Shown here piece by piece: positions 3,203-49,102 of a stretch of DNA of 64,000 bases. This DNA comes from an uncultured Gammaproteobacteria bacterium. Its GTDB lineage: Bacteria > Patescibacteriota > Microgenomatia > Levybacterales > UBA12049. Under the pieces are notes generated by a model. That model made no database searches and was not told the origin of the DNA. It saw only the letters and a list, made by a program, of their open reading frames with translations. The translations under genes and the position numbers were made by a program. The DNA is taken from the NCBI GenBank assembly GCA_964503265.1, contig CAZCYO010000001.1, forward strand, positions 162,064-226,063, written 5' to 3'. Within the stretch, counting starts at the first letter, position 1. Every line of letters begins with the position of its first letter.

Positions 3203-3262
3203 CTAATTTACCGCTCATTCACCTTGCAAATACCCCTTTTATCTGATAGGATGTGACGAGTT

Positions 3263-4441
3263 ATGCTTATAAAACCTCAAGCGAATAACTTCGCGAAAAT
3301 CCGCGTACTTGGTGTTGGTGGTGGTGGTGGAAATGCTGTTAATTCCATGGTAACCTCTGGCAATATTCAGGGTGTCGATTTTGTGGCAGTTAATACAGAT
3401 GCTCAGGCACTTCTCAGAAATAAAGCAGATATAAAGCTTCAAATTGGAGAGAATTATACCCGGGGACTTGGTAGTGGAGGAGATCCGGAAGTTGGCCGTC
3501 AAGCAGCAGAAGAATCAAGTGAGAAGATCAAACACATGTTAGAAGGATCTGATATGGTATTTTTAACAGCTGGAATGGGTGGGGGAACAGGAACTGGAGC
3601 TATCCCAGTCATCGCTCAGATTTCTAAAGAAGTAGGTGCGCTTACTGTTGCAGTCGTCACAAAACCATTTGCATTTGAAGGAACTCGTCGCATGGTATCT
3701 GCTGAAGAAGGTGTCGAAAGTGTTAAAGATCATGTCGATACATTAATCGTTATTCCAAATCAGAGAATTTTAGAAGTAGTCGATCGCAAACTCTCACTCG
3801 TCGATGCATTTAAAGTAGCTGATTCAGTACTCGAACAGGGTGTTCAGGGTATTTCTGAGATTATCACACTACCTGGACTTATCAATATCGACTTTGCCGA
3901 TGTACGAGCAATCATGCAAAATGCTGGTTCAGCACTCATGGGTATCGGAAAAGGAAAAGGAGAAGGTCGTGCACAAGCCGCAGCAAGGGGGGCAATCGCT
4001 TCCCCGTTACTCGAAGTATCGATGGATGGAGCACGGGGAGTATTATTTAATATCGTCGGTGGCCCTGATCTTACAATGACTGAGGTAGACGAAGCAGCGA
4101 AGATTATTAAATCAGCAGCAGATCCAGATGCGAACATTATTTTTGGAGCAGCAATTGAAGAATCTATGCGAGATGAACTGCGTATCACCGTCGTCGCGAC
4201 GGGATTTGACAGTAATCGTGTTACGATGCGAGACTTCATCCCAAATCGCTACAGCACACCATCAGTTCCATCCCAGCAAGAACCAGAAGAACGTCACGAG
4301 CGTCAAGATATACCAAATCAGCCATCTCAACCATCAAATGTACTTAACCAAGGCGGCATGCCACAGCAGCCACAAGAAAAGAAATCAGACAAAGAAGAAG
4401 ACGAATGGGACATCCCCGCATTCCTAAGGCAGAGAAACTAA
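3263..4441 (+). CDS. ftsZ: cell division GTPase FtsZ
   Basis: Tubulin signature [14 protein letters not shown]7 loop NIDFADV, acidic/Pro-Gln-rich C-terminal linker and conserved C-terminal DIPAFLR peptide. Confidence 0.95.
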
Positions 4442-19206: not shown

Positions 19207-19881
19207 ATGGAATTTACATCACTCACGGTTAATGAAGTGCGAAATGAGACACAGGAGTATCGTTCTATAATTTTTCAAAAGCCGAAAGATTTTAGTTTTA
19301 CTCTTGGAGAATGTTTTTCTCTTCGATTTCCAGGTGAAGATAGTTCTAAAGTTTTTTCATTTGCTTCCTCTCCCACAGAAGACCGAATAGTAATCTCATA
19401 TAAGAAGGGGATAAGTCGTTTTAAGAAACAACTTGATAATCTTCATACTGGCGATCAGATGGAAGTATCATTATATGGAAGTCAATTTCACTTTGATGAA
19501 AAGAAATCATCGGTTTTTATTGCAGGTGGAATAGGAATTACAGCTTTTAGAAGCATTATTTCCTACTGTGTTGATAAAAACATTCGTTCTCCGATTCACT
19601 TATTGTTTTGCAATAGAACAGATACGTTTCCTTTTCACGATGATCTTACTTATTTTTTAACAAAACTGCCTCATTTACGTATTACATTTATTTCGACTGA
19701 TAAAGAAGGAAGATTAACTACAGAAGAAATAAAAAAAGTTATTACTAGTTATAATGAGGAATTCTATTTAGCTGGCCCTCCACTTATGATTGATTCAACT
19801 GTCGAATTATTACAGTCGTGTGGTATTAATTCAAATCAAATACACACTGAAAGTTTTGACGGGTATTTTGAAGAAGTTTAA
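19207..19881 (+). CDS. FNR-family FAD/NAD(P)-binding oxidoreductase
   Basis: RxYS-like FAD motif (KVFSFASSP) and NAD-binding GGIGITAF. Confidence 0.55.
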   Translation: MEFTSLTVNEVRNETQEYRSIIFQKPKDFSFTLGECFSLRFPGEDSSKVFSFASSPTEDRIVISYKKGISRFKKQLDNLHTGDQMEVSLYGSQFHFDEKKSSVFIAGGIGITAFRSIISYCVDKNIRSPIHLLFCNRTDTFPFHDDLTYFLTKLPHLRITFISTDKEGRLTTEEIKKVITSYNEEFYLAGPPLMIDSTVELLQSCGINSNQIHTESFDGYFEEV

Positions 19882-21056
19882 ATAGCTTGAGGTTTGGTCT
19901 GAAGTGGCAATGTAACAGTAAATTCTGTACCAGATCCGAGTGTGCTTTCTACTTTTATTTTTCCACCGTGAGCTGTGATAATTTGATGTGTTATGTATAA
20001 TCCGACACCAAGCCCCTGGTAATTATGTGATGTTGTCGCTCTTTGGAAACGACCAAAAACCTTTCCTACTTTTTCAGGATGAATACCAATTCCTTCATCA
20101 CTTACAATAATCGTAGCGCTAGTATTATGTTTTAAAACCGTAATTGTGATTGGGTTATTGTCTCCATATTTAATCGCATTTGTAATAAGGTTCGTGATTA
20201 CCTGTTCTATTCGCACTTTATCCCATGTTCCTTTTATGGGATCTTTTGCGTTCAGTGTGAGTGTATAATTTTCTCGTTTCATTTTTTCACTAAATCTATC
20301 AACTACTTCCCGAACAAGTGCTGATAAATCAAATTCTTCAACCTCTAATTCTAATCTTCCTGTTGTGATAAGAGATACATTTAAGAGATCATTTATCATT
20401 TTTGACAGCCGGGTACTTTGTTGCTCGGTGCTTTCAATCATTTTTAATAGCTTCTCAACAGAAAAATTTGCAAGTGAAACATTTCGAATGTTATGAAGAA
20501 CTGTTTGTAGTTGAAGAAGCATTGATGTCAGTGGTGTTTTAAGTTCATGTGTTGCTATAGATAGGAATTCATCTCTTGCTCGAATTTCTTTTTCTGCATC
20601 TTTTAATTTCGTATCGAAATGTCTAATAAGCTTTTTGTATTCTTCGTTTTCGTCTTGTATTTTTTGTAGTTCAGCAGAATATGTAGACTTCTGCATGAGA
20701 ATACTTATAGCAATCCCTTCCAGGAACATAACGAGAACGGATGGAATAACCCAAAACGGCAGTGTCGGATGAGTAATACCTAAATGATAAAATGTAAATA
20801 GTAGACAGGAAATAGTTGTCGTTGTGATTCCACCATTTTTGCCAGTATACCATGCACTCAAAGCAGTTAGCGGAAAAAAGAATAAATAGAGACCAACATA
20901 ACCTATAAACGGAACAAAAAGTACAGAAAGGAAAACAATTACAATACCGATGAGGCTCGCAATTGCGTATACATGCATGATTGCACTTCTCTTGTTTTTT
21001 TTATCACCTATGAGTATCAACGCGCTTTGTTCGTGCTCAGAAGAATTTTTATCCAT
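19878..21056 (-). CDS. sensor histidine kinase (multi-TM sensor, HisKA + HATPase_c)
   Basis: H-box SIATHELKTPLTSM, N/G1/G2 boxes (NLITNAIKYG, DEGIGI, GLGVGLYITHQII); no response regulator adjacent. Confidence 0.85.
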   Translation of the reverse strand: MDKNSSEHEQSALILIGDKKNKRSAIMHVYAIASLIGIVIVFLSVLFVPFIGYVGLYLFFFPLTALSAWYTGKNGGITTTTISCLLFTFYHLGITHPTLPFWVIPSVLVMFLEGIAISILMQKSTYSAELQKIQDENEEYKKLIRHFDTKLKDAEKEIRARDEFLSIATHELKTPLTSMLLQLQTVLHNIRNVSLANFSVEKLLKMIESTEQQSTRLSKMINDLLNVSLITTGRLELEVEEFDLSALVREVVDRFSEKMKRENYTLTLNAKDPIKGTWDKVRIEQVITNLITNAIKYGDNNPITITVLKHNTSATIIVSDEGIGIHPEKVGKVFGRFQRATTSHNYQGLGVGLYITHQIITAHGGKIKVESTLGSGTEFTVTLPLQTKPQAI

Positions 21057-25072: not shown

Positions 25073-26182
25073 TTACTCTTTTACCAATTGATAGCCAAGT
25101 TTTTTATGATTGATAATTTCGTACCCTTTTTCTTTAATGTACGGGTGATGGCGAAGTCTGTAAACGAGAGAGTCAAGCGCCCAGTCTGTTGAACCAGTTG
25201 TTATATTTTTCCACACTGTTTCAATAATTTTTTCTTTAGAAATAATTTTCCCATTGTTCTTTTTTAAAAATTGAAAAAGGAGTTGTTCTTTCACAGATAA
25301 GTGAAATGACTTCTTTTTACAGATATATTCTTTTAGAAGTGGACTAAATAATTGATATGTTTCTTTATCATGTTTTACAACACCTATTTGTAAGAGAAAA
25401 CTATCCATATCAACTGTTTTTTCCTGAGCAATTCGTTCAATAATGCGTACTTGAGGACGAGTCAAAAAGCTCAGAATATCTTTTAAAAGAAGTTTAATAT
25501 AAGGATCATGGTTGAGGTTATTTGGAGTAGACGAACGAAGAATAAGCTGGAGAAGTTGAATATGTCCACCGCTTAGAGTCAGTGCATCTAGTATATTTTC
25601 TTTATGAATAACTTCAGGGGAATGAATTTTTAGTAATGCTTTTAAATCTTCGTGAGAATAGGGTGTAAAGTACACATATCGAGAAAAGATATGCATATTA
25701 CTCCCAACGACTGCCGCAGGATTATATTCTATAAATGGCTTATTTACACTAAAAATGAGGCTTACTTTCCCTTCGTTTTCATAACAAAGCGTTCTAAAAT
25801 TTCCTAAAAAAGATTCAGAAAATTCATGAGAGAGAAGATCAATTTTATTAACCATAATGACAACTCGATTATGTAGTTTTGTTATCGCATGCAGGGCAAC
25901 TTTACATTCTTCAAAAGAAACATTCTCTTTTTTAATGCCAGACATTTTATAAAAGAGTACATCAAGAAATACACGTTTTGAAAATTCAGCCAATTCATAT
26001 GTATCAAGAAGTATGGTATATGCGTCAATTTTATTTTCAATAAAACGTAAGAATGGAGAAATACCAACAGAGGGCATGCCGATAAGAGAAAAAGACTGCC
26101 CGCTCATAATAAACGAGCGAACTTGCTCTAACATATTTCCAGCAAATGTATCTGGCAAAAGTGACTCTTTTTGTTTATTCAT
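25073..26182 (-). CDS. transcriptional regulator with N-terminal NTPase-like domain and C-terminal OmpR/PhoB-type winged helix
   Basis: C-terminus LSVKEQLLFQFLKKNNGKIISKEKIIETVW...DSLVYRLRHH...LGYQLV matches trans_reg_C; N-terminal region has degenerate P-loop-like GMPSVGIS. Confidence 0.5.
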   Translation of the reverse strand: MNKQKESLLPDTFAGNMLEQVRSFIMSGQSFSLIGMPSVGISPFLRFIENKIDAYTILLDTYELAEFSKRVFLDVLFYKMSGIKKENVSFEECKVALHAITKLHNRVVIMVNKIDLLSHEFSESFLGNFRTLCYENEGKVSLIFSVNKPFIEYNPAAVVGSNMHIFSRYVYFTPYSHEDLKALLKIHSPEVIHKENILDALTLSGGHIQLLQLILRSSTPNNLNHDPYIKLLLKDILSFLTRPQVRIIERIAQEKTVDMDSFLLQIGVVKHDKETYQLFSPLLKEYICKKKSFHLSVKEQLLFQFLKKNNGKIISKEKIIETVWKNITTGSTDWALDSLVYRLRHHPYIKEKGYEIINHKKLGYQLVKE

Positions 26183-26353
26183 TAATTTATGCCTAATTTC
26201 ATCAGTATTTTATCATTTTAGTATCAAGAAATACAGAGGAATTGGTTATATCATGAAGTTACTTTCCTCAGACACGTTAAACAGTAGCGTTTAGCATTTT
26301 TTTAGGAGAGGATCTTGAACAACTGATCGAATAGTATCTGAGAGGAGACGGTC

Positions 26354-26854
26354 ATGCACGATGCATTCACTTACTGCCCGAACTGTGGTGGTACGTTGGT
26401 GTGGCCAGTTATCACTCCTGGTCAGTCACATGGACGGCCAAAGTGTATTAACTGTGGTTTCACCGACTATCATAATCCAATCCCAGCTGTTTGTGCGATC
26501 GTCCCTTACGAAGGAGGAGTCGTACTAATACAGCGGAAGAAGGCCCCTTTCCCTGGGTCGTGGTGCTTGCCTTGTGGGTTTGTCGATTATCGCGAGCAGC
26601 CAGATGATGCTATCGTTCGCGAGGTACGCGAAGAGACTGGACTCATTGTTAGTCCGAGTTCTGTCGTTCTGGCATGTGTGCCAGAACAGACGAACGAGCT
26701 CGTACTTCACTACCATACTGAGGTCGTCGGTGGCGAGCTTATCGCTGGTGACGATGCTTATAGTGCAGCTGTCTACATGTCTGGCAATTTGCCAGAATAC
26801 ATGCCTTTTAAGACCCATCGAGACATTATCCAGAAATGGTTTTCTCAGAACTGA
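26354..26854 (+). CDS. NUDIX hydrolase with N-terminal C4 zinc ribbon (NudC-like)
   Basis: CPNCGG...CINCGF zinc ribbon; Nudix box GFVDYREQPDDAIVREVREETGL; GC ~50% and canonical GAGGAG SD, unlike neighbours. Confidence 0.75.
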   Translation: MHDAFTYCPNCGGTLVWPVITPGQSHGRPKCINCGFTDYHNPIPAVCAIVPYEGGVVLIQRKKAPFPGSWCLPCGFVDYREQPDDAIVREVREETGLIVSPSSVVLACVPEQTNELVLHYHTEVVGGELIAGDDAYSAAVYMSGNLPEYMPFKTHRDIIQKWFSQN

Positions 26855-34413: not shown

Positions 34414-36009
34414 ATGGAACAGGAATCTTTGCAGCTTATTGTTAAAAAAAATCCCCTTTGGTTTGACCTGTTGCTTCCTTTTTACATCGTTGTTAGCTTA
34501 TGGTACTTAATATGGATTTATGCATTATCACTTGATTGGTATACATGGTTTGCTGTACCACTGTTTACGGCAGAGATTTATCGAATTTGGTTTTCAATTA
34601 CATCACTTATTACAGCGCGTGTTCTGGCATGCCCTAAAAAAATTGATGCACCCACAACCATTTCTGTGGATGTTCTTATTCCGACACTTAATGAACCATT
34701 TGAAGTACTGGGAAAAACCATTGATGGAGCGATGAATATACGAGGTATTAAGAAGGTACTTGTGTTAGATGATGGAAAAAGGGAATGGGTTGAAGCGTAC
34801 TGTCAAGATATTGGAGCTATCTACTTAGCACGAGGAACAAATGTTCACGCTAAAGCGGGTAATTTAAATTTTGGGTTAAAACATTCTACAGCTGATTTTT
34901 TAATTACCCTTGATGCTGATCATATTCCAGAACCAGATTTTATCGAAAAAACTGCGGGATATTTTCATGATCCAAAACTCGCATTTATTCAAACTCCTCA
35001 AACATTTTATAACCTGGATAGTTTTCAGCACAGATCTGTTAAATCGTATCCACTGTGGAATGAGCAATCGATGTTTTATGATTCGATTCAACCGGCAAAA
35101 AATATATTTAATGCTGCGTTCTTTTGTGGAAGTAGTGCAATTATCAGACGAAGTGCACTCGATAGTATCGGAGGATTTGCGACAGGTACTGCAACAGAAG
35201 ATATTCATACAGCAATTCGAATTCATAGTAAAGGATGGAAGTCACTATTCCTTTCAGATGTACTTGCTCGAGGACTTGCACCAGCTGATCTTAAGGAATA
35301 CCATAAACAGCGAGTGCGCTGGGGTGCTGGTTCACTGGGACTACTTCTCCGTACAAAAGACTCACCACTTTTAATCCGAGGGCTTTCTCCAATGCAGAGA
35401 ATTTGTTATGTAAATTCAACTCTCGCATATGCTCAGGGACACGTGAAGTTATTTTACTGGATTTTGCCGATCATTATTATTTTTGCCGGGCATAATCCAT
35501 TTCGAATACCATTTCTTATTTTCTTAAGTATTTATCTTCCATATTTTTGGTTTTCCATCTGGATGACGAAATTATATTCACGCAATTCTTATCATCCGAT
35601 GTATACAGAACAGTATAATATCGCGAATATTTTTTCTAATTTAGTGGCTCTTAAAGGCGTTATTCGAGTACAGAAAAAATTTGCTGTATCGATAAAACTT
35701 AAAAAGAAACAAGAAAATTCATTTATCATAAAAGCGATGACTGGAATTGCATTAACGATGATTGGGGCTGAAGGATATGGATTATATTATTGGTATGCGC
35801 AGTATCATTTTTCAATTGAGAAACTTCTAAGTGATACGATCGTTTCTGGTATGTTTTGGAATTTGTTCAATCTTTTTTTCTTGCTTTCATTCTTAAAATT
35901 TGTGTATCAATTTAATAAACAAAAACAATTTCTGCATGAGGAAAAAAGGGAATTACAAACTGAAAATGTTACTTCTTTTAATCATGCTTCTCTTCAAATA
36001 AACCCATAG
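34414..36009 (+). CDS. processive GT2 beta-glycan synthase (cellulose synthase catalytic subunit BcsA-like)
   Basis: D (VLDDGK), DxD (LDADH), TED (TATEDIHT) and QxxRW (QRVRWGAG) motifs, N- and C-terminal TM bundles. Confidence 0.8.
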   Translation: MEQESLQLIVKKNPLWFDLLLPFYIVVSLWYLIWIYALSLDWYTWFAVPLFTAEIYRIWFSITSLITARVLACPKKIDAPTTISVDVLIPTLNEPFEVLGKTIDGAMNIRGIKKVLVLDDGKREWVEAYCQDIGAIYLARGTNVHAKAGNLNFGLKHSTADFLITLDADHIPEPDFIEKTAGYFHDPKLAFIQTPQTFYNLDSFQHRSVKSYPLWNEQSMFYDSIQPAKNIFNAAFFCGSSAIIRRSALDSIGGFATGTATEDIHTAIRIHSKGWKSLFLSDVLARGLAPADLKEYHKQRVRWGAGSLGLLLRTKDSPLLIRGLSPMQRICYVNSTLAYAQGHVKLFYWILPIIIIFAGHNPFRIPFLIFLSIYLPYFWFSIWMTKLYSRNSYHPMYTEQYNIANIFSNLVALKGVIRVQKKFAVSIKLKKKQENSFIIKAMTGIALTMIGAEGYGLYYWYAQYHFSIEKLLSDTIVSGMFWNLFNLFFLLSFLKFVYQFNKQKQFLHEEKRELQTENVTSFNHASLQINP

Positions 36010-36027
36010 TTTAATTTCCTCTTCACA

Positions 36028-36038
36028 TTTGGTATACT
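36028..36038 (+). promoter_or_regulatory. module 0 promoter: extended -10 TTGGTATACT
   Basis: TGnTATACT directly after the GT2 stop; the same ttcctcacatttg-type context is seen at the module C promoter. Confidence 0.5.
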
Positions 36039-36069
36039 CTCGCCATGTCTTTCACATTCTCGTGGAAGA

Positions 36070-36080
36070 GCACTTTTACA
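36070..36080 (+). promoter_or_regulatory. module 0 leader box (GCACTTTTACA, variant of GCACGTTTACA)
   Basis: One-mismatch copy of the box conserved in all five tandem modules. Confidence 0.45.
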
Positions 36081-36115: not shown

Positions 36116-36607
36116 ATGGACCTATCTCGTTTGTTCTGGGTAAACCTTTTCGGTATGATGATGAGTACGGTACTCGTGTTAGAGTACCATTTCCTTGTCC
36201 AAGACCGAGGTAGTCGGGGCGTGAAGTCCGTGGCGACAGCAGGAGTACTATTCATGCTTGTTCCACAAACAGTCATGGACTGCTTCTTCGTATATAACTC
36301 AGTACTTATTTATCCACTGAACTTTTTCTATAGCATAATGGGCATACTCGCCTTTTTTTTGGCAGCAATGCTAGTGAGTTCGCTCACACCAAAGCGGTTT
36401 CATGTATACCTTCTCCCACTCCATGCACTTCTCATAGTTGCAGGATGTGTAGAGATGGTAGCTATTCCTATCACCGCTTATGCAGTACAGCATGCTAGAG
36501 GAATAGAAATGTTCTTCTTTGTCGCGCTGGCAAGTATCGTCATACCTGTCGGTTCTATCATAGGGGTCACATCGCTCATGCTTCCGAAATACGGAGGCAC
36601 ACACTAA
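36116..36607 (+). CDS. island module 0: polytopic membrane protein (163 aa, ~4-5 TM)
   Basis: SD AAAGGA 6 nt before ATG at 36116 (ORF-track start 36029 is TTG inside the promoter); GC-rich codons. Confidence 0.55.
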   Translation: MDLSRLFWVNLFGMMMSTVLVLEYHFLVQDRGSRGVKSVATAGVLFMLVPQTVMDCFFVYNSVLIYPLNFFYSIMGILAFFLAAMLVSSLTPKRFHVYLLPLHALLIVAGCVEMVAIPITAYAVQHARGIEMFFFVALASIVIPVGSIIGVTSLMLPKYGGTH

Positions 36608-36622
36608 CATGCAGGAGGAGTC

Positions 36623-36883
36623 ATGCGAAAAGAACTCAGTGACATGAATCGACGGCAATTGGGTCGTCGAGTTCGGCGTTACAATCAGGTGTGCAAGGTG
36701 CTTATTCGAGCATTTGCGTACTTGGAAGTAACAGATGCCTACAAGCTCTTTCAGTGCGAAGTCGCTTCCTTTAGGAGGGACATTCGCAAGAAGAGGAAGT
36801 ACCCAACGGGTGTTCTGCGGACGCGAGTTATCAGGGTGCATGAGCGTTTGCAAGCGGTTGTGAAGCTCACGCACCGAGTATAA
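36623..36883 (+). CDS. island module 0: small highly basic protein (86 aa, Arg/Lys-rich, nucleic-acid-binding-like)
   Basis: SD AGGAGG before ATG; RRQLGRRVRRYNQ ... KKRKYPTGVLRTRVIRVHERL. Confidence 0.55.
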   Translation: MRKELSDMNRRQLGRRVRRYNQVCKVLIRAFAYLEVTDAYKLFQCEVASFRRDIRKKRKYPTGVLRTRVIRVHERLQAVVKLTHRV

Positions 36884-36892
36884 GGAGGTCTC

Positions 36893-37168
36893 ATGGCTGA
36901 TAGGCAGTTTCAAGGATTGACCCGAGTTCAACTCGCTGGGATCGCATGGAACATGCGTGGAATCATGGATATTCTCAACTCAGGACCGGATCTCGATGTG
37001 TCATTTCACCTCGTCTGGTTCTACCGTGAGCTTGAGAACTTCACAACTATGTTTAATTCACAAGAAGACGTTGAGACGCTTCGTCTTCAACTGTGCGTGG
37101 TGTATCAGGAGATGCACGGCTTCATATCTGTAGGAGGAGATGAAGTATCATCTACTGTTCAGTCGTAA
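36893..37168 (+). CDS. island module 0: small soluble protein (91 aa)
   Basis: SD AAGGAGG before ATG; followed by structured terminator. Confidence 0.55.
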   Translation: MADRQFQGLTRVQLAGIAWNMRGIMDILNSGPDLDVSFHLVWFYRELENFTTMFNSQEDVETLRLQLCVVYQEMHGFISVGGDEVSSTVQS

Positions 37169-37177
37169 CAATATCTA

Positions 37178-37290
37178 TAAGCACCGTCGCGGTGTAACCG
37201 AGCAGTGATCCTTACTTCTGGACAATGGCGTCCATGAGGCGAGAACTCAGCTTCGGTTGCATAAACCAAAGCGGTGCTTTCTCGTTTTAG
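37178..37290 (+). terminator. module 0 structured terminator: AAGCACCG ... CGGTGCTT closing stem enclosing ~85 nt, then TCTCGTTTTAG
   Basis: Same GCACC/GGTGC closing helix with covarying flanks is found after modules A-D. Confidence 0.55.
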
Positions 37291-37359
37291 AATGATATAT
37301 TTCGAAATATTCCACAATAATCTTCATTACATTATAATCCCATAGCTTGTAAATTTTAC

Positions 37360-37374
37360 TTTTTTTGTTATACT
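37360..37374 (+). promoter_or_regulatory. module A promoter: T-tract + extended -10 TGTTATACT
   Basis: ttttttTGtTATACT. Confidence 0.5.
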
Positions 37375-37437
37375 CCAGTTTATATCTAAACATATGTAGA
37401 CTAATACCTGTCTATAGTAGGTTTATTTATGCTCATA

Positions 37438-37448
37438 GCACGTTTACA
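37438..37448 (+). promoter_or_regulatory. module A leader box GCACGTTTACA
   Basis: Exact copy of conserved 11-mer, ~65 nt downstream of -10. Confidence 0.5.
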
Positions 37449-37546
37449 GTACGGAAAAGTGATTCAATTAGGAACTCTTTATTTCATATCTATAGAGATA
37501 TGAGGTATGGGGTTCCTATTTTGGAACCGAATCGAGGAGGGTCAGC

Positions 37547-38020
37547 ATGGCTATCCAGATTCCCGACCCAGCTTTGGGAGCCTGGTTTTTTCCAGAAAAC
37601 GCCCCGATTCCTATGGAGTTCGTCTCTGATAACTTCGCACTTCGCATCAGCAAAGGCGGCCGTAAGGTTGTCGTTGGCGAGGTTACGATCATCGATGCGA
37701 TCAAGATGTGTATGTATACCGTCCGGATGGAGAATGGCTTGCCAGTTGCTTATTGGCAAGCTGTGCAAAGTGATCCCGATGCGAAGTTGACCCTTGGCCT
37801 GGCGCCACTGGGTGAAAAGAGGGAGGTAACTCCGAAGGAGCGCAGGAGGATGAATTTCCTTCTGCATAACGCGGCAGGGTGCAATTGTGTGCCGTTTCCT
37901 GGCGATGTGACCATCTTCTGGCGCACGGCGCTGGACATGTGCGCGTCTCCCAATAGTCAGAGGCATACGCCTCGGCGCCAGATGACCAAGGTCAGTCCGC
38001 GAAAAGCTCACAAGCGCTAA
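37547..38020 (+). CDS. island module A: hypothetical protein (157 aa) with basic C-terminal tail
   Basis: SD GAGGAGG before ATG; ~165-nt leader containing a ggttcc/ggaacc hairpin. Confidence 0.55.
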   Translation: MAIQIPDPALGAWFFPENAPIPMEFVSDNFALRISKGGRKVVVGEVTIIDAIKMCMYTVRMENGLPVAYWQAVQSDPDAKLTLGLAPLGEKREVTPKERRRMNFLLHNAAGCNCVPFPGDVTIFWRTALDMCASPNSQRHTPRRQMTKVSPRKAHKR

Positions 38021-38060
38021 GCCTCTCACTTCTCACACCATTCCGTACTCTCGTGCCTAC

Positions 38061-38145
38061 GCACCCTCGAATCAGTGATGATTCATTCGCCATGTGGCGG
38101 ATTCTTAGTGACAACGATGTCACAACGAGAGGGTGCATTACCATT
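38061..38145 (+). terminator. module A structured terminator: GCACCCTC ... GAGGGTGC closing stem, weak U-tract
   Basis: Covariant version of the GCACC/GGTGC helix; encloses a gtgaca/tgtcac hairpin. Confidence 0.45.
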
Positions 38146-38174
38146 TAAATAACCCATAGTTCTACTTTAATTCC

Positions 38175-38188
38175 TTTTTTGCTATACT
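38175..38188 (+). promoter_or_regulatory. module B promoter: T-tract + extended -10 TGCTATACT
   Basis: ttttttGCTATACT. Confidence 0.5.
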
Positions 38189-38226
38189 TCGCTTACGTCA
38201 TACTAAGAAAAAATCTTAGTGTGCTC

Positions 38227-38237
38227 GCACGTTTACA
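38227..38237 (+). promoter_or_regulatory. module B leader box (TC)GCACGTTTACA
   Basis: Exact 13-mer TCGCACGTTTACA. Confidence 0.5.
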
Positions 38238-38268
38238 TCTTTCGTATTGTGTCAGAAGAAAGGAGTCT

Positions 38269-38619
38269 ATGATGCTACCACATCCTCATGACTATGGACG
38301 AATTCAACTGCGAGCAGTATTTTCCCTGCAACGTTCACCAACTGGTGAAACTCTCATTGAAGAGGGCGACTACCGGCTGGTCAAGCATTTGCCATGTGGC
38401 CATCCATTTAAGACGATGGCACTAGCAATTATGCTTAACCTCGGATCGTACAAGATCTGGGAACTACGTGCTCTCATAGAGCATATAGAGAGAAAGGAGA
38501 GCGTTGGCATCGAAAGTATCTTTGGCGAACTAATCACCTGTGTGAGATGCCGTGAGGCATTTCTTCACCTCGTGACTGGGTTCATGGATGCACTCATCGC
38601 AATGGGCGAAGAGAGCTAA
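38269..38619 (+). CDS. island module B: soluble protein (116 aa) with Cys/His cluster (CGHP ... CVRC)
   Basis: SD AAAGGAG before ATG at 38269 (ORF-track 38179 start lies in the promoter). Confidence 0.55.
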   Translation: MMLPHPHDYGRIQLRAVFSLQRSPTGETLIEEGDYRLVKHLPCGHPFKTMALAIMLNLGSYKIWELRALIEHIERKESVGIESIFGELITCVRCREAFLHLVTGFMDALIAMGEES

Positions 38620-38637
38620 AACAAAGGAGGCTGTGTC

Positions 38638-38949
38638 ATGCGCGAATACTGGTGGGTTGGCATTCTTGGGTGGATTCTGCTCGATATCACTGGTAGTAGG
38701 TTAAGTCCTCGTGCCATTAAAGGTACATGGCGGAGTGAAGAGACACCACTTGGAAAAGTCATCTCTTTTCTCGGATACTCCAGTGTTCTGGCATCGCACA
38801 TCGTGTTCGTGGTTACCTTTCTTCTCCTTCTGCGCTCAGATGGATTCTTCGCAGTCGTCGGCTGTAGTGGAGCAGTCGCAGTAGGCGATCGCTCAGCTGT
38901 GAGTATGGGATACTTCACGCACAAACGAGAAAGGAGGAATCCACAATAA
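38638..38949 (+). CDS. island module B: two-TM mini-membrane protein (103 aa), basic C-terminus ...RERRNPQ
   Basis: SD AAGGAGG; C-terminus similar to module C mini-protein (...NRHRPQN). Confidence 0.55.
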   Translation: MREYWWVGILGWILLDITGSRLSPRAIKGTWRSEETPLGKVISFLGYSSVLASHIVFVVTFLLLLRSDGFFAVVGCSGAVAVGDRSAVSMGYFTHKRERRNPQ

Positions 38950-38958
38950 CCAAACAAT

Positions 38959-39071
38959 AAGCACCGTGGAGGTGTAACCGAGCAAAGTAGCTCATCAACG
39001 GACAACGGCGTCCATGAGATTGGCACTTAGCTACGGTTACCTAAACCTAAGCGGTGCTTTCTCATTTTTAG
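38959..39071 (+). terminator. module B structured terminator: AAGCACCG ... CGGTGCTT + TCTCATTTTTAG
   Basis: Near-identical in organisation to the module 0 terminator (shared internal ggtgtaaccgagca and ggacaa-ggcgtccatgag). Confidence 0.55.
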
Positions 39072-39090
39072 CGCCCCAAAGTCTTATTGT

Positions 39091-39108
39091 CTTTTTTTTT
39101 GGTATAAT
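39091..39108 (+). promoter_or_regulatory. module C promoter: T9 tract + extended -10 TGGTATAAT
   Basis: ctttttttttGGTATAAT. Confidence 0.5.
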
Positions 39109-39178
39109 TTCCTCACATTTGAAAGGTACAGAGACTATTCAAGCTGTCTTTATTACTTTATCAATTGTCTAATCTATC

Positions 39179-39189
39179 GCACGTTTACA
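39179..39189 (+). promoter_or_regulatory. module C leader box (TC)GCACGTTTACA
   Basis: Exact 13-mer. Confidence 0.5.
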
Positions 39190-39285
39190 TTTTTTGCGGA
39201 AATTAACCCACTCACCGATGGCTTTTTGTTTGGTATCACTACCAGCTGAAAAGCTGTCGAATGAGTGTAATGTAGGAGAGGATCT

Positions 39286-39615
39286 ATGAAGTTCGTGGAG
39301 GTCTACACTCGGTTGGAAGGAGTTCCAGAAGGAACTATCATCAGCTTGACGTTTAAAAAAAAGGACATCAAGAAAATTCTCTATTTGGCTACGATGATCG
39401 GGAAGAAAATCCCTATCTTCACAGTCGAGAAAGGAACAAAGAAGAAAATAAAGCGGCTGTCTCGTAAGCAAGTCTGGTATAACAGACGAGATCGTACGAT
39501 CTCTGTCCGGACCACTTCGACCTTTGGAGAAGCTCTGAATATGGATTGGTTCGTCACAGTTATGTGTTATAGCCTCGAACATGTCGAGGTCTTATTCCAT
39601 CAGGAGCACCGCTGA
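39286..39615 (+). CDS. island module C: soluble Lys-rich protein (109 aa), LTF-motif family
   Basis: SD AGGAGAGG; N-terminus MKFVEVYTRLEGVPEGTIISLTF paralogous to 40816 ORF (MKLVDIYALSSAGIPTGAKLVLTF). Confidence 0.55.
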   Translation: MKFVEVYTRLEGVPEGTIISLTFKKKDIKKILYLATMIGKKIPIFTVEKGTKKKIKRLSRKQVWYNRRDRTISVRTTSTFGEALNMDWFVTVMCYSLEHVEVLFHQEHR

Positions 39616-39727
39616 AGCGGTAAAGGAGGTCACAAACCGTACAGCTGCTCGAGTTAGCGGCCACTGTTCACAATTCCTTCATCGATCTGATGAGGAACCT
39701 CGACTATATTCGCTGAGGAGGTGCACT

Positions 39728-39877
39728 ATGCCCCCGTTCAACGTAGTTATTGCTATCGTAATTGTAGCTCTCGTGGCTACATTCGCGATAAGCCGTGATC
39801 TATGGCCAGCTCTCGGAGTGTTCGTTGGAGGAATTCTCATTCTGTTGTGGTGCAATAGACACCGTCCACAGAATTAA
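39728..39877 (+). CDS. island module C: two-TM mini-membrane protein (49 aa)
   Basis: SD GAGGAGG before ATG at 39728; paralogous to 40630 ORF; ORF-track 39581 extension is unsupported. Confidence 0.5.
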   Translation: MPPFNVVIAIVIVALVATFAISRDLWPALGVFVGGILILLWCNRHRPQN

Positions 39878-39913
39878 ATTTCCTTACTTTTTCCGTAATG
39901 GTTATCGTGCCTT

Positions 39914-39978
39914 AAGCACCCCGATACGTTTCCAGTGATGGGAATTTCCGAAAGGATAGGGGTGCTTTCTCATTTTTA
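39914..39978 (+). terminator. module C structured terminator: AAGCACCCC ... GGGGTGCTT + TCTCATTTTTAT
   Basis: Compensatory change (CG to CC/GG) relative to modules 0 and B. Confidence 0.55.
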
Positions 39979-40020
39979 TATCCTCAATTCATTGAAACCT
40001 ATAGTTTGATTATTTCTCAT

Positions 40021-40033
40021 TTTTTTGCTATAC
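40021..40033 (+). promoter_or_regulatory. module D promoter: T-tract + extended -10 TGCTATACT
   Basis: tttttTGcTATACT. Confidence 0.5.
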
Positions 40034-40175
40034 TACACATGCATTTGAAGGCTATCTAGACTCATTTTTGCTGTCTCGATAATACTTCTTCTGCTTATTT
40101 ATTCGACCACTGTATCTTACTTTTCGACTTAGATCATTTGATCTGTGGCTTAAAGAGCGATAAGTAGTGGACTTC

Positions 40176-40186
40176 GCACGTTTACA
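40176..40186 (+). promoter_or_regulatory. module D leader box (TC)GCACGTTTACA
   Basis: Exact 13-mer; followed by tcccgat-atac-atcggga hairpin and CGATGGCTTT(T)TG motif shared with module C leader. Confidence 0.5.
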
Positions 40187-40303
40187 AATCATCCCGATAT
40201 ACATCGGGAATTGCGGAAATAGATAACTAATCGATGGCTTTGTGCCTCGACAGACAGTCGGGATAGAAAGTCGTCGGTTAGTTTTTCGTCGAAAGGATCA
40301 TAA

Positions 40304-40606
40304 ATGTCTCACGAAGCTGTTCTGAACATAGTCACAGACCTTCTGCCACTGACGCTGATCGAGATAACCTTCACACTAGAAGGATTTCAGGGTCTCTGCC
40401 TTCTACATCAAATGTGTCAACGCAAGGGTTTACCTCTGCTATTTGACGCGCGGACTCATCGTCGAATTGGACGTCTAGTGAGCATCGGAGAGTGGGGAGA
40501 CGATGGAAATCGTCATATCTTCGGATACATATCCGAGGCTTTTTCTCCCACTCACTTCACTGAAACACTTCAGCCATATCTCGAAAATGTTCGAGTAGTG
40601 GCCTAA
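40304..40606 (+). CDS. island module D: soluble protein (100 aa), LTF-motif family
   Basis: SD AAAGGA; LTLIEITFTLEG motif. Confidence 0.5.
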   Translation: MSHEAVLNIVTDLLPLTLIEITFTLEGFQGLCLLHQMCQRKGLPLLFDARTHRRIGRLVSIGEWGDDGNRHIFGYISEAFSPTHFTETLQPYLENVRVVA

Positions 40607-40629
40607 CCTACATAATGGAGGTGTCCAAC

Positions 40630-40791
40630 ATGCAAACATTCTGCGATCTGTTTGCCATCTTTCTGGTGGCGATCGGGTATACAGCCGCATTAAGCGGCGG
40701 ACTACTCGGTGGGGGAATTCTCATCACAGTTGCGCTCCTTCTCATCTTCGCGCCCACAGTCTATATGGACTGGGCAAAATTGCGTCGCTGA
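40630..40791 (+). CDS. island module D: two-TM mini-membrane protein (53 aa; below ORF-track size cutoff)
   Basis: SD GGAGG 8 nt before ATG; MQTFCDLFAIFLVAIGYTAALSGGLLGGGILITVALLLIF resembles module C mini-protein; coordinates hand-counted (+/-1). Confidence 0.45.
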   Translation: MQTFCDLFAIFLVAIGYTAALSGGLLGGGILITVALLLIFAPTVYMDWAKLRR

Positions 40792-40815
40792 TGCGACAAA
40801 TGTAATGGAGGCACC

Positions 40816-41013
40816 ATGAAGCTCGTCGACATCTATGCTCTGTCCAGTGCTGGTATCCCGACGGGAGCAAAACTCGTACTTACGTTCGAGCTCAATGCGC
40901 ACATGGGTCCTTTCCACCTGAAAGGACTTGTTCAGAATCACAGTTTGCCGACCGCGTCGGCCCCTTCTTGGAGAGCCTGGAGATTAAGCGCCCGTAAGGG
41001 CAATGAGCTATAA
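40816..41013 (+). CDS. island module D: small soluble protein (65 aa), paralog of module C 109-aa protein N-terminus
   Basis: SD GGAGG; MKLVDIYALSSAGIPTGAKLVLTFEL. Confidence 0.5.
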   Translation: MKLVDIYALSSAGIPTGAKLVLTFELNAHMGPFHLKGLVQNHSLPTASAPSWRAWRLSARKGNEL

Positions 41014-41035
41014 CGCAATCGTACACGTGCGAATC

Positions 41036-41112
41036 TCGCACCCTTGGGTCTTTTTAGACCCGCCTCTTTAGAGAGGTTTCTGTAAAAAGAAAGGGTGCGA
41101 TTTTTGCATTTT
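41036..41112 (+). terminator. module D / island-end structured terminator: TCGCACCCTT ... AAGGGTGCGA + TTTTTGCATTTT
   Basis: 10-bp closing helix around two internal hairpins (gggtc/gaccc, cctct/agagg) followed by U-tract, 40 nt before ileS. Confidence 0.55.
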
Positions 41113-41155
41113 ATGCCTAGTTGAATAGGCTCAACCTTTGCGCTACAATTAGCCC

Positions 41156-48172: not shown

Positions 48173-48280
48173 GTGTCTATTATCTGCGGACCACGCTTAA
48201 AAGTCAATTAACATGAGGATTTGTCCTCACTGTTTCGCATAGAAATGCAGCGGGGGGTCAGAGGTGTAATTTGGGATCCC

Positions 48281-48315
48281 TATCTCATGACGAGACGGGG
48301 ATCCCAGGGGTATGG
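48281..48315 (-). terminator. hairpin tgggatccc / gggatccca (9-bp stem) downstream of the minus-strand module E ORFs; a second hairpin tgagga/tcctca + T-rich run lies at ~48211-48230
   Basis: Perfect inverted repeats between module E stop and lepB start; U-tract weak for the first, better for the second. Confidence 0.35.
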
Positions 48316-48330
48316 GATGTAGGATGCGAA

Positions 48331-48534
48331 TTATTGCTTGTCGACCGAGACAGCGCGTTGTTCACTCGATTCGATGCGTAATAAAAGGACAATGCTACAA
48401 AAAACGAGCTCTACTAAAAATAATAGAAAAAGCACGCTGTAGCCCCAAGAAAAGATAATGGAGCAGTACATCCCAGCTAGGCAGGCGATAACAACTAAGA
48501 AGCAGATCCGAGTACTCAGAGGTATACGAGCCAT
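48331..48534 (-). CDS. module E: two-TM mini-membrane protein (67 aa)
   Basis: SD AAAAGGAGG 7 nt before ATG (MARIPL...); the longer ORF-track version (to 48666) overlaps the upstream gene; GC-rich. Confidence 0.5.
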   Translation of the reverse strand: MARIPLSTRICFLVVIACLAGMYCSIIFSWGYSVLFLLFLVELVFCSIVLLLRIESSEQRAVSVDKQ

Positions 48535-48577
48535 AGGAATGCCTCCTTTTTTACTCATCCGCCGTACATCGGCGAGA

Positions 48578-48928
48578 TTAGTTCTGTGAGATTTGTCGCT
48601 GCGTGTCCTCACTAAGGACGCGCATGAACGTCGTGATGACTTCGTCTGATCGGCGCTGTAGGTCATGATCGATGAGTATCTCTCTGATCTTGACGTACTC
48701 CCTTTGACCGAGAATACCAGAGTGCCAGTGATTTGGTGAAGGCCAGCAGAAGAGTTCTGTCGGAGTATTCGTGTCTGGCTGGTACTGGATCAGAAGGATC
48801 TGGACGAGCATGAGTCTGGGGTACCGACGCAGTTCTATCATCATCCCATTATCTAATTCAATGGGGTAGATGGAAGGCTGACCGAATGTCAACTGCATGT
48901 GTAGCTTCGATCCTTCGACGTCACTCAC
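48578..48928 (-). CDS. module E: soluble protein (116 aa), LTF-motif family (KLHMQLTFGQP)
   Basis: GTG start with SD AAAGGAG 6 nt upstream; GC-rich codons. Confidence 0.5.
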   Translation of the reverse strand: MSDVEGSKLHMQLTFGQPSIYPIELDNGMMIELRRYPRLMLVQILLIQYQPDTNTPTELFCWPSPNHWHSGILGQREYVKIREILIDHDLQRRSDEVITTFMRVLSEDTQRQISQN

Positions 48929-49086
48929 GAGCGACTCCTTTCATGTAATACGAATGAACGACGCTCTATGCAGAAATAGTTTCTGAACAGGGTATCGCTC
49001 ACTCATACCATCCTAACATCTCAATGTGCGAAAAATAAATAAATTAAAAAGCAGCAAAACAGCCTGTAATTTATATATTATGGGGT

Positions 49087-49102
49087 ATTATAGCAAAAAA
49101 AA
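49087..49102 (-). promoter_or_regulatory. module E promoter on minus strand: T8 tract + extended -10 TGCTATAAT
   Basis: Reverse complement of 49081-49102 reads cttttttttGCTATAATacccc; leader contains TCGCACATTGAG (cf. TCGCACGTTTACA) at ~49020-49031. Confidence 0.45.

Follow-up and report, generated by a model that had tools for sequence, protein, structure and literature searches.

A short box with the consensus T-N-GCAC-N-TT-N-A lies in the transcribed 5' leader of each of six small gene modules in the window, by which we mean the whole stretch of 64,000 nucleotides analysed here, from a Candidatus Levybacteria (CPR) bacterium. The box is always in sense orientation, is flanked by predicted RNA structures, is under selective constraint and is present in four genomes. 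We infer that it acts as RNA, that some factor binds it and that the modules are controlled in a coordinated manner. Our leading reading, held with somewhat less than even confidence, is that of a cis-acting 5'-leader signal, a single-stranded RNA site read by one factor that would coordinate the modules. Very few CPR/Patescibacteria can be grown, and for this reason almost nothing has been established, to our knowledge, about how they regulate their genes.

A conserved box in six leaders

The window contains five modules in an array on the + strand (M1 to M5) and a sixth at a second locus on the - strand (M6), and each of the six boxes is in the leader of its own promoter-to-terminator module.

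36068..36080, + strand: M1 leader box, GAGCACTTTTACA, one mismatch in the 11-mer core
37436..37448, + strand: M2 leader box, TAGCACGTTTACA
38225..38237, + strand: M3 leader box, TCGCACGTTTACA
39177..39189, + strand: M4 leader box, TCGCACGTTTACA
40174..40186, + strand: M5 leader box, TCGCACGTTTACA
49019..49031, - strand: M6 variant leader box, TCGCACATTGAGA; in orthologues the block extends to GCACATTGAGAT.T.AGGA

Sequence search confirmed the copies listed by the first-pass annotation, namely the exact 11-mer GCACGTTTACA at 37438, 38227, 39179 and 40176 (+ strand), the longer form TCGCACGTTTACA in three of them (38225, 39177, 40174), the one-mismatch copy GCACTTTTACA at 36070 and the minus-strand variant GCACATTGAGA at 49029-49019, within TCGCACATTGAGA at 49031-49019. 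A further one-mismatch copy at 29950, inside a minus-strand ORF, is probably a chance match. The recurrence had been judged to be beyond chance, and this was borne out by shuffles, which gave 0.70 matches on average and at most 4, none of 100 reaching six. A de novo search for the ungapped 11-mer best shared by the six leaders returned the box with a score of 48/55, compared to 39.2 ± 1.2 (maximum 44) for the null. With the relaxed consensus GCAC.TT[TG]A.A, the window yielded the six leaders and one coding site (16864), about one match being expected, and no more copies were found in the 7.5 kb past the window end.

Together with six boxes from three other genomes, 12 copies are known, with the core GCACnTTnA usually preceded by T-N; their independence is limited, since several are paralogues. 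The copies vary at position 5 (G/A/T/C) and position 8 (T/G/A). On inspection, the box is neither a palindrome nor a repeat, and it is strictly in sense relative to its module.

Promoters and position of the box

The box had been placed inside the transcribed leader rather than at -35, and we found that it follows extended -10 promoters, close to consensus and of the same type as those of the host itself, the transcription starts being inferred from the -10 elements.

36007-36015, + strand: upstream element CCCATAGTT, preceding the M1 promoter
36026..36038, + strand: M1 promoter, T-rich tract and extended -10 (TGGTATACT)
37362..37374, + strand: M2 promoter, TTTTTGTTATACT
38176..38188, + strand: M3 promoter, TTTTTGCTATACT
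39096..39108, + strand: M4 promoter, TTTTTGGTATAAT
40022..40034, + strand: M5 promoter, TTTTTGCTATACT
49087..49099, - strand: M6 promoter, TTTTTGCTATAAT

From M1 to M5, the end of the -10 hexamer is 31, 63, 38, 70 and 141 nt from the box, and the box is 35, 98, 34, 96 and 117 nt from the start codon, with a measured box-to-SD distance of 22-106 nt; the spacing ranges first given for both intervals were roughly right. Over all leaders, including those of the other genomes, the distance from the -10 varies from 10 to 141 nt, which makes the box unlike a promoter-bound operator.

A DNA operator, at which a bound protein would block initiation or elongation (roadblock) and so repress all modules, nevertheless has points in its favour, although we consider it unlikely. 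The box is conserved to the letter and points the same way as the promoters, and one copy in a distant Levybacterium (L006) is only 10 nt after the -10 hexamer, overlapping the expected transcription start in a classic repressor position, where it would also suit an operator. The window encodes an OmpR-type winged-helix protein (25073-26182), a point on the same side. The conserved element CCYATAGTT, found upstream of many of these promoters, could be a second site, but it is also found ahead of ordinary, leaderless host genes without a box (in L024 and L122). Moreover, the site is single and asymmetric, without half-site repeats, no DNA-binding gene is linked to the modules, and the variable promoter distance is filled by hairpins covarying as RNA, the sequence before and after the box behaving like structured RNA.

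Predicted structure of the leaders

Folding compared with shuffles showed that all segments between the transcription start and the box form a hairpin (z -1.8 to -6.3), named P1 below, and long hairpins (P2) were predicted in several of the box-to-SD intervals.

36048..36069, + strand: M1 5' hairpin P1, abutting the box; z -3.5
37381..37431, + strand: M2 5' hairpin P1, with an AGAC...GTCT core common to M4 and M5; z -2.2
37463..37525, + strand: M2 long hairpin P2 in the box-SD interval; z -5.2, 0/200 shuffles
38197..38224, + strand: M3 5' hairpin P1; z -6.3
39115..39168, + strand: M4 5' hairpin P1; z -2.9
39209..39267, + strand: M4 long hairpin P2 in the box-SD interval; z -4.4
40041..40170, + strand: M5 5' structured domain of two hairpins upstream of the box; z -2.5
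40192..40289, + strand: M5 hairpins (one small, one long P2) in the box-SD interval; z -7.1
49034..49079, - strand: M6 5' hairpin P1, its stem covarying in three orthologues
48946..49010, - strand: M6 long hairpin P2, absent in strain L082 and replaced in L002; z -5.2

In these models, the box always sits in an open stretch after the 5' hairpin. Its unpaired probability, a thermodynamic prediction, is 0.29-0.74 (mean about 0.56) compared to about 0.37 for whole leaders, and the lowest value (0.29) belongs to the M3 box, which would be paired for the most part. Distances from box to SD fall into two groups, of 0-24 nt (four leaders) and 78-163 nt (eight leaders). Seven of the long spacers fold beyond chance (z -4.4 to -7.5, 0/200 shuffles each), these statistics covering those seven, and the eighth (163 nt, L002) has a predicted fold of -51.3 kcal/mol. 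Once folded, the long spacers leave 3-25 exterior unpaired nucleotides.

The earlier preference for an RNA-level element is thus favoured by the sense orientation, the variable promoter distance, the flanking hairpins, one of them covarying, and the predicted accessibility. In our preferred reading, the box would be displayed as a single-stranded recognition site after the 5' stem-loop and kept spatially near the ribosome-binding site, either adjacent to the SD (0-24 nt) or with a very stable hairpin in between. We would expect a single trans-acting factor to bind it, a protein being the most plausible, and thereby to determine translation initiation and/or the fate of the mRNA jointly in all modules. 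A sequestering anti-SD/anti-start element was rejected, the duplex energies of the box with the translation initiation region being within the range of leader windows and shuffles.

A contiguous, exact and single-stranded site of 9-13 nt in a 5' UTR would also be expected of the target of a trans-encoded sRNA or of a common endoribonuclease processing site controlling mRNA stability, and the adjoining long perfect hairpins resemble RNase III substrates. Against an sRNA, no anti-box above the shuffled-box level was found on either strand of the 64-kb window, and the box variants differ inside any putative seed (positions 5 and 8). We regard this pair of explanations as quite improbable.

Orthologous leaders and other genomes

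The three orthologous M6 leaders, those of L082, L002 and the window, share the block GCACATTGAGAT.T.AGGA without any change but differ in their flanks. Three of the six pairs of the M6 P1 stem carry compensatory substitutions on both sides among these leaders, and slid controls all gave 0, so that the covariation sought around the box was found in the neighbouring hairpin (three sequences) and not in the box itself. P2 of the same leader is deleted in L082 and replaced in L002.

The genome L006, whose IleRS is 65% identical, contains three modules with promoters of the family found in the window and the boxes GCACATTAAGA, GCACGTTAAGT and GCACCTTGATT. About 0.03 would be expected by chance in three such leaders, which have no other likeness to those of the window. 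The idea of one signal for the whole array holds in that the box is common to all modules, but it is not confined to the array, since the second locus and three other genomes also carry it.

These comparisons of sequence indicate that the box is under selection, because it is the sole block conserved among otherwise diverged leaders and because its variant is invariant while the flanks change. The 11-mer is identical in four paralogous leaders that have otherwise diverged, and their module proteins are unrelated or barely related. We hold it highly improbable that the box has no function of its own, being just what has decayed most slowly in leaders that were duplicated or gene-converted, or else a piece of a leader peptide or upstream ORF. 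The M2, M4 and M5 leaders are clearly paralogous (AGACT...CTGTCT hairpin; GCGGAAAT and the P2 base), which speaks for a remnant, but 11 contiguous bases are identical where the flanks have diverged to near-random identity, the variant is kept across species while the neighbouring structure is remodelled, and the box recurs in L006 leaders without other similarity. A further point against this explanation is that the box pairs with the start region no better than controls do. For a leader peptide, a start codon stands 2-3 codons upstream of a frame in M2, M3 and M5 that would read A-R-L-(Q/H) through the box. Only these three agree in start and frame, M1, M4, M6, L002 and L006 showing no such consistency, and this candidate was rejected.

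Module genes, terminators and host

The modules measure 0.8-1.3 kb, each with its own strong promoter, and their products are mostly without homologues and often paired with small membrane proteins.

36116..37168, + strand: M1 genes for 163-aa membrane, 86-aa basic and 91-aa proteins, SD-led, of no known family
37179..37290, + strand: M1 terminator, a long branched stem closed by AAGCACCG/CGGTGCTT, then a U tract; z -3.7
37547..38020, + strand: M2 gene, 157 aa, without detectable homologue
38061..38146, + strand: M2 terminator-like branched stem (GCACCCTCG/CGAGAGGGTGC); z -4.2
38272..38949, + strand: M3 genes, 115 aa soluble and 103 aa membrane
38959..39069, + strand: M3 terminator, 83-93% identical to that of M1; z -6.4
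39286..39877, + strand: M4 genes, 109 aa soluble and 49 aa membrane
39914..39977, + strand: M4 terminator
40304..41013, + strand: M5 genes, 100 aa soluble, 53 aa membrane and 65 aa
41020..41115, + strand: M5 terminator, marking the island's right edge, directly ahead of the leaderless ileS promoter; z -8.0
48331..48928, - strand: M6 genes, 116 aa soluble and 67 aa membrane; M6a is coding and evolves fast
48272..48306, - strand: M6 terminator hairpin; z -3.8

Among 50 of the host's own genes, 2 have an SD and 32 appear leaderless, whereas the 13 module genes are without exception SD-led, have long leaders and are richer in G+C (GC3 of 0.42-0.63 compared to 0.26-0.33 for host genes). By their SD and leaders, module transcripts are therefore a distinct class, which could need, or permit, a dedicated input. 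The modules look portable and their genes look horizontally acquired; the insertion sites vary, between core genes, and no recombinase was found among the proteins of the 64-kb window. Between the window and L082, M6a has 13 nonsynonymous and 13 synonymous codon changes. One copy of the box in another genome precedes a SemiSWEET transporter gene.

The box provides a sequence-defined, selection-backed leader signal marking this transcript class in an overwhelmingly leaderless host. That it is the signal of a dedicated expression system, by which a host that translates nearly all of its own mRNAs without leaders would express a mobile pool of SD-led, fast-evolving and foreign-looking genes, is a rather improbable extension. 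A lineage-specific factor, for example a Nus-type complex of altered specificity or a new RNA-binding protein, would then license or silence every box-bearing transcript.

The 86-aa basic protein (36623-36883) had been named as one to check for nucleic-acid binding, of which we found no evidence: its model is a low-confidence helical bundle, it matched no Pfam or PHROG family, and no homologue was found among 1.84 billion proteins. Family scans of the window proteins gave no RNA-binding or regulator gene linked to the modules. The box itself offers a handle for finding its putative factor, and promoter, box and SD together form a key with which other genomes can be searched for such modules. 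Should one factor read it, the box would define a regulon of accessory genes, with a possible role in interactions with a host organism; if it is a plain operator, it would be an ordinary regulon motif.

Comparison with known signals

Rfam 15 gave no match in the window at gathering thresholds, and in the island at E<5 the only two matches were at chance level and away from the box. A sigma-54 promoter (TGGCAC-N5-TTGC) was rejected, with no TTGC at a fixed spacing and no invariant GG, since 11 of the 12 copies have C, A or T ahead of GCAC and only M1 has G. The operators of the LacI family (cre/PurR), palindromes of 14-16 bp with a central CG, fit only by their right half CGTTTACA, and the CG is missing in the M6-type and L006 variants. 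An integron attC array was also rejected: the box is non-palindromic, the modules have their own promoters, and the 3' hairpins end in terminator-like U tracts.

The BoxA consensus is GYTCTTTAANA (PMC5725501), and in E. coli its U6G change greatly lowers NusB-NusE affinity and blocks antitermination (PMC3177189). Like BoxA, the Levybacteria box is a short conserved element in a transcribed leader, predicted to be single-stranded, one per transcription unit and beside a hairpin of variable sequence, and as in rrn operons, where it is processed, a long helix follows. The box might be where an elongation or antitermination factor is loaded, comparable to BoxA (NusB-NusE) or ops (RfaH). As nascent RNA or non-template DNA, it would recruit to RNA polymerase a factor that protects the long untranslated leaders and perhaps permits read-through of the terminators between modules, the host's own transcripts being translated from their first nucleotide onwards. 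The rrn-like order of promoter, hairpin, single-stranded box and long stable helix, the tandem modules with terminators between them and the bases G2, C3, C5, U7, U8 and A10 common to both boxes are consistent with this. However, the canonical BoxA core fails at two positions, position 4 being U in BoxA and an invariant A in 12/12 boxes, and position 6 a pyrimidine in BoxA and a purine in 10/12; in view of how many motifs were compared, agreement at 7/10 specified positions lacks significance. The box also differs from rrn BoxA in preceding short protein-coding modules, and no rRNA gene was found in the window or among the 81 loci examined. With their short length and own strong promoters, the modules do not obviously need processive antitermination, and their leaders, U-rich and structured, would be poor Rho substrates.

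The resemblance to ops/JUMPStart (RfaH) and LoaP/UpxY, which also speaks for a loading site, is that of an exact, strand-specific box of 8-12 nt, one per unit, at a variable distance in the 5' leader, limited to horizontally acquired or accessory operons with one common input. In contrast, the sequence is unrelated to ops (GGCGGTAGnnTG), the units are very short with a promoter and terminator each, and no NusG paralogue or KOW match turned up among the scanned proteins of the window, a 64-kb part of the genome. Taking both sides together, we consider a loading site rather unlikely.

The cold box of the E. coli cspA family is an 11-nt box in the long 5' UTRs of several genes with a putative common factor. 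Its sequence likeness is loose (ACGU...ACA; a 7/11 match is within chance), and it differs in lying at the extreme 5' end of the UTR in one paralogous gene family, whereas the genes behind our box are unrelated. The 5'-UTR operators of translational repressors or activators, such as CsrA GGA sites and the phage RegA and coat-protein operators, resemble the box in presenting a short motif, single-stranded or in a loop, spatially near the SD across a regulon of mRNAs; unlike the CsrA site, the box core has no GGA, and GGA or GGAA follows the box only in M2, M4, M5 and the M6 type.

The accessory modules and their host

The IleRS relatives place the host among Candidatus Levybacteria (CPR/Patescibacteria). 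An island at 36.0-41.1 kb, with a G+C content of ~46% compared to ~36% in its flanks, contains five tandem modules on the plus strand (M1 to M5), and a sixth module (M6) was located at 49.1-48.25 kb on the minus strand. In every module the promoter combined a near-consensus extended -10 element (TTTTTTGnTATAcT) with a T-rich tract; it was followed by a leader carrying a short conserved element, the leader box (core GCACnTTnA), and by one to three small genes (a, b and c in order), all preceded by Shine-Dalgarno (SD) sequences of the GGAGG type. Each module ends in a long, branched terminator (in M1 to M5 unusually long, 60-110 nt, z -2.6 to -8.0), whose closing stem has GCACC at its start and GGTGC at its end and is followed by a U tract. 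The terminators of M1 and M3 are 83-93% identical and the genes preceding them are unrelated. The tetramer GCAC is common to the module terminators and the leader box.

Module terminators in the window
37179-37290, module terminator
38061-38146, module terminator
38959-39069, module terminator
39914-39977, module terminator
41020-41115, module terminator

Host and module genes differ sharply in their mode of translation initiation. All 13 module genes (36116-41013 and 48331-48928) are SD-led behind long leaders, compared to an SD-like sequence in only 2 of 50 host genes; in 32 of these 50 a -10-like hexamer precedes the start codon by 5-11 nt, a leaderless arrangement.

A conserved box in the module leaders

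The first-pass annotation had reported four exact copies of the box and one with a single mismatch, recurring beyond chance. We confirmed GCACGTTTACA at 37438, 38227, 39179 and 40176 and the one-mismatch copy at 36070, all on the plus strand; three copies read TCGCACGTTTACA. Exact and one-mismatch matches together numbered six in the window against a mean of 0.70 in dinucleotide shuffles, none of which reached six (0/100), so that the recurrence stands. The sixth match, at 29950 within a minus-strand ORF, is probably due to chance. The M6 leader carries the copy TCGCACATTGAGA at 49031-49019 on the minus strand. When the six leaders were searched for their best common ungapped 11-mer, without the box as query, the box itself was recovered with a score of 48/55 (null 39.2 +/- 1.2, null maximum 44). 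The relaxed pattern GCAC.TT[TG]A.A was found in the six leaders and at one coding site (16864), with ~1 match expected, and no box was present in 7.5 kb of extra sequence examined. Twelve boxes from four genomes gave the consensus T-N-GCAC-N-TT-N-A. The leader box is real, under selection and previously undescribed, and serves as the marker of a class of accessory modules found in some Levybacteria.

Conservation in other Levybacteria

We compared the window with 80 genome and 80 metagenome loci of relatives, covering ~10 kb on either side of ileS (2.45 Mb in total). In a related species (L002, IleRS 83% identical), an M6 orthologue lies between the same flanking genes as in the window, and a second, convergent module has an M1-like promoter and the leader box GCACGTTGATA; a strain contig (L082) carries another M6 orthologue. 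In the alignment of these three M6 leaders the block GCACATTGAGAT.T.AGGA is invariant. The hairpin 5' of the box (P1) showed compensatory substitutions in its stem, AAATTA/TAATTT, AGATCT/AGATCT and ATCGA/TCGAT, with both sides changed in 3 of 6 pairs and in none of any slid control, for three leaders.

A distant Levybacterium (L006, IleRS 65% identical) contains three plus-strand modules with the promoter pattern CCYATAGTTT-N(about 19)-TTTGYTATAMT and the boxes GCACATTAAGA, GCACGTTAAGT and GCACCTTGATT. Its second box lies 10 nt past the -10 hexamer and abuts the SD, ahead of a gene for a SemiSWEET (PQ-loop/MtN3) transporter (L006 19204-19470), which indicates that the signal is not limited to genes without known relatives. 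Apart from L002 and L006, no module was found at the lepB-GT2 site in the distant relatives sampled. Over the 160 loci the box pattern occurred 37 times with 37 expected, and their SD-led genes were without box; the distribution of the box is therefore patchy in the sampled ileS loci.

Architecture of the leaders

The box lies 10 to 141 nt from the -10 hexamer, and the sequence from the transcription start up to the box forms a hairpin in each case folded (z -1.8 to -6.3). The box has a mean predicted unpaired probability of ~0.56 compared to ~0.37 for whole leaders, the M3 copy being mostly paired. Between box and SD the spacers were of two classes. A weakly structured one of 0-24 nt is present in four leaders (M1, M3, L082 and the second L006 module). 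The other eight have spacers of 78-163 nt; seven of them were tested by shuffling and gave z -4.4 to -7.5 with 0/200 shuffles as stable, and the eighth (L002, 163 nt) gave -51.3 kcal/mol from folding without shuffles. After folding, only 3-25 exterior unpaired nt were left in the long spacers, which contain long hairpins (P2).

Long near-perfect P2-type hairpins between box and SD
37463-37525
39209-39267
40213-40289
48946-49010, minus strand
L002 6734-6789
L006 18255-18371

No leader had a long unstructured spacer. The box may be kept spatially near the ribosome-binding site, or at least long open leader RNA would be avoided, and its linear distance on the DNA appears unconstrained. Only between M4 and M5 are the P2 hairpins related in sequence. 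The P2 of M6 is deleted in L082 and a different, longer hairpin takes its place in L002; these hairpins look dispensable, and similar to inserted palindromes or RNase III substrates.

How the box could be read

Reading at the RNA level is favoured by the strict sense orientation of the box, its free distance from the promoter, its asymmetric single site, the covarying RNA-type structure that flanks it and its spatial association with the SD. We tentatively consider, at slightly less than even confidence, that the box is recognised as RNA by a single trans factor, which would act on it in the leader. The box paired with the SD or start region no better than controls did, and no complementary anti-box RNA in the window scored beyond the null, the site at 41021 (GTACACGTGCGAA) being within chance. 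A leader peptide was rejected, as no upstream ORF was consistent across the copies. The sigma-54 promoter, LacI-type operators (LacI/cre/PurR) and attC fail on their defining features, and sigma-B, ECF and sigma-70 promoters, parS and the DnaA box were rejected on reading the sequence. Rfam gave no family matches.

Functionally, the closest analogues are BoxA/nut and ops, short exact boxes present once per unit in transcribed leaders, through which acquired or special operons share an elongation input. Like BoxA, with its consensus GYTCTTTAANA (PMC5725501), the leader box keeps G2, C3, C5, U7, U8 and A10. It departs from BoxA at position 4, which is A in every copy, and at position 6, where 10 of 12 copies carry a purine; transversions at the latter position of BoxA were reported as not tolerated (PMC3177189). 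These two positions set the leader box outside BoxA by sequence. It could nevertheless be a BoxA with a lineage-specific change of specificity, and a GCACNTTNA box in the rRNA operon leader or the 16S-23S spacer would make it the BoxA of this lineage. The element itself is of a familiar kind, a conserved leader box giving a common input, and its mechanism is inferred.

Proteins encoded by the modules

The module proteins matched no Pfam or PHROG family. The 86-aa basic protein M1b (36623-36883) had been put forward as a candidate binder of the box; this is unsupported, since it gave a low-confidence helical model (pLDDT 66) and had no homologue among 1.84 billion representative proteins. M2a matched only itself, with no relative among 5.8 billion proteins, and its model (pLDDT 35), like that of M1b, was too poor for fold search. 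M6a has a single homologue, an 89%-identical strain variant. Third-position G+C is 0.42-0.63 in the modules versus 0.26-0.33 in host genes. The G+C content at codon position 1 exceeds that at position 2 in the module genes, which for this pattern over codon positions look truly coding.

M6a is fast-evolving: between the two strains (48578-48928, minus strand, and L082 1457-1807) we counted 13 synonymous and 13 nonsynonymous codon changes, with a DNA identity of 90.6%. In the neighbouring glycosyltransferase, 95.3% identical, third positions account for 32 of the 34 changes. M4 (39286-39877) and M5 (40304-41013) are diverged paralogues. The alignment between their a proteins is weak (E 0.018), M5c is similar to M4a at the N-terminus, and the small membrane proteins have a 27-nt block in common (39814-39840 and 40698-40724). 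Their leaders have GCGGAAAT and the base of P2 in common, with a compensatory C:G to A:T change.

Genomic surroundings and promoter elements

A phage or plasmid origin was rejected, with no DNA similarity to phage records, no PHROG matches and viral contigs lacking the signature: four scans of these contigs (box 14-mer, M6 pattern, terminator 18-mer and promoter pattern) gave only chance or unrelated matches. No integrase, phage gene or NusG paralogue was found among the other genes of the window, and no tRNA or tmRNA.

In other Levybacteria (e.g. L064) ftsA-ftsZ lie directly upstream of ileS. Here they are at 1904-4441 and ileS at 41156, so that a lineage-specific stretch of ~36 kb (4500-41100) separates them, with glycosyl- and methyltransferases, a family-A DNA polymerase domain, a beta-CASP RNase, a histidine kinase (19878-21056) and the island. 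A 369-aa protein (25073-26182, minus strand) has a C-terminal OmpR/PhoB-type winged-helix DNA-binding domain without recognisable receiver domain; we found no link between the box and this protein or the kinase. Breaks in independent assemblies fall at or near the island, at position 1 of L002 and at the end of another contig (L001; window ~42738), which may reflect strain heterogeneity at the site. Because the L002 contig begins 103 nt upstream of ileS, the site equivalent to M1-M5 is unseen in that species.

A NUDIX hydrolase gene (26354-26854), one of the two SD-led host-side genes, has a G+C content above its surroundings and a GGGGGGCTTTCTTTT terminator at its end. Its leader (26272-26283) contains the box-like ACACGTTAAACA, in which the otherwise invariant first G is changed and which may be a degenerate seventh copy.

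We found also a second conserved element, CCYATAGTT(T), ~19-21 nt upstream of module -10 hexamers.

CCYATAGTT(T) sites
36007-36015, window
37341-37349, window
38155-38163, window
40007-40015, window
18165, 19136 and 22308, L006
20226, L024
9551, L122

In other Levybacteria it stands ahead of a sigma-70-like gene (L024) and a leaderless gene (L122), and therefore looks like a native promoter-upstream element rather than an island-specific one. In M1 the element and the stop codon of the preceding glycosyltransferase gene overlap. M2 has a second promoter-like site, TCCACA-16-TATAAT (37311-37338), immediately before its CCCATAG element, so that the two read TATAAT-CCCATAG. The M6 leader shows the same juxtaposition (GCTATAAT-ACCCCATAAT), and tandem promoters may be present in some modules.
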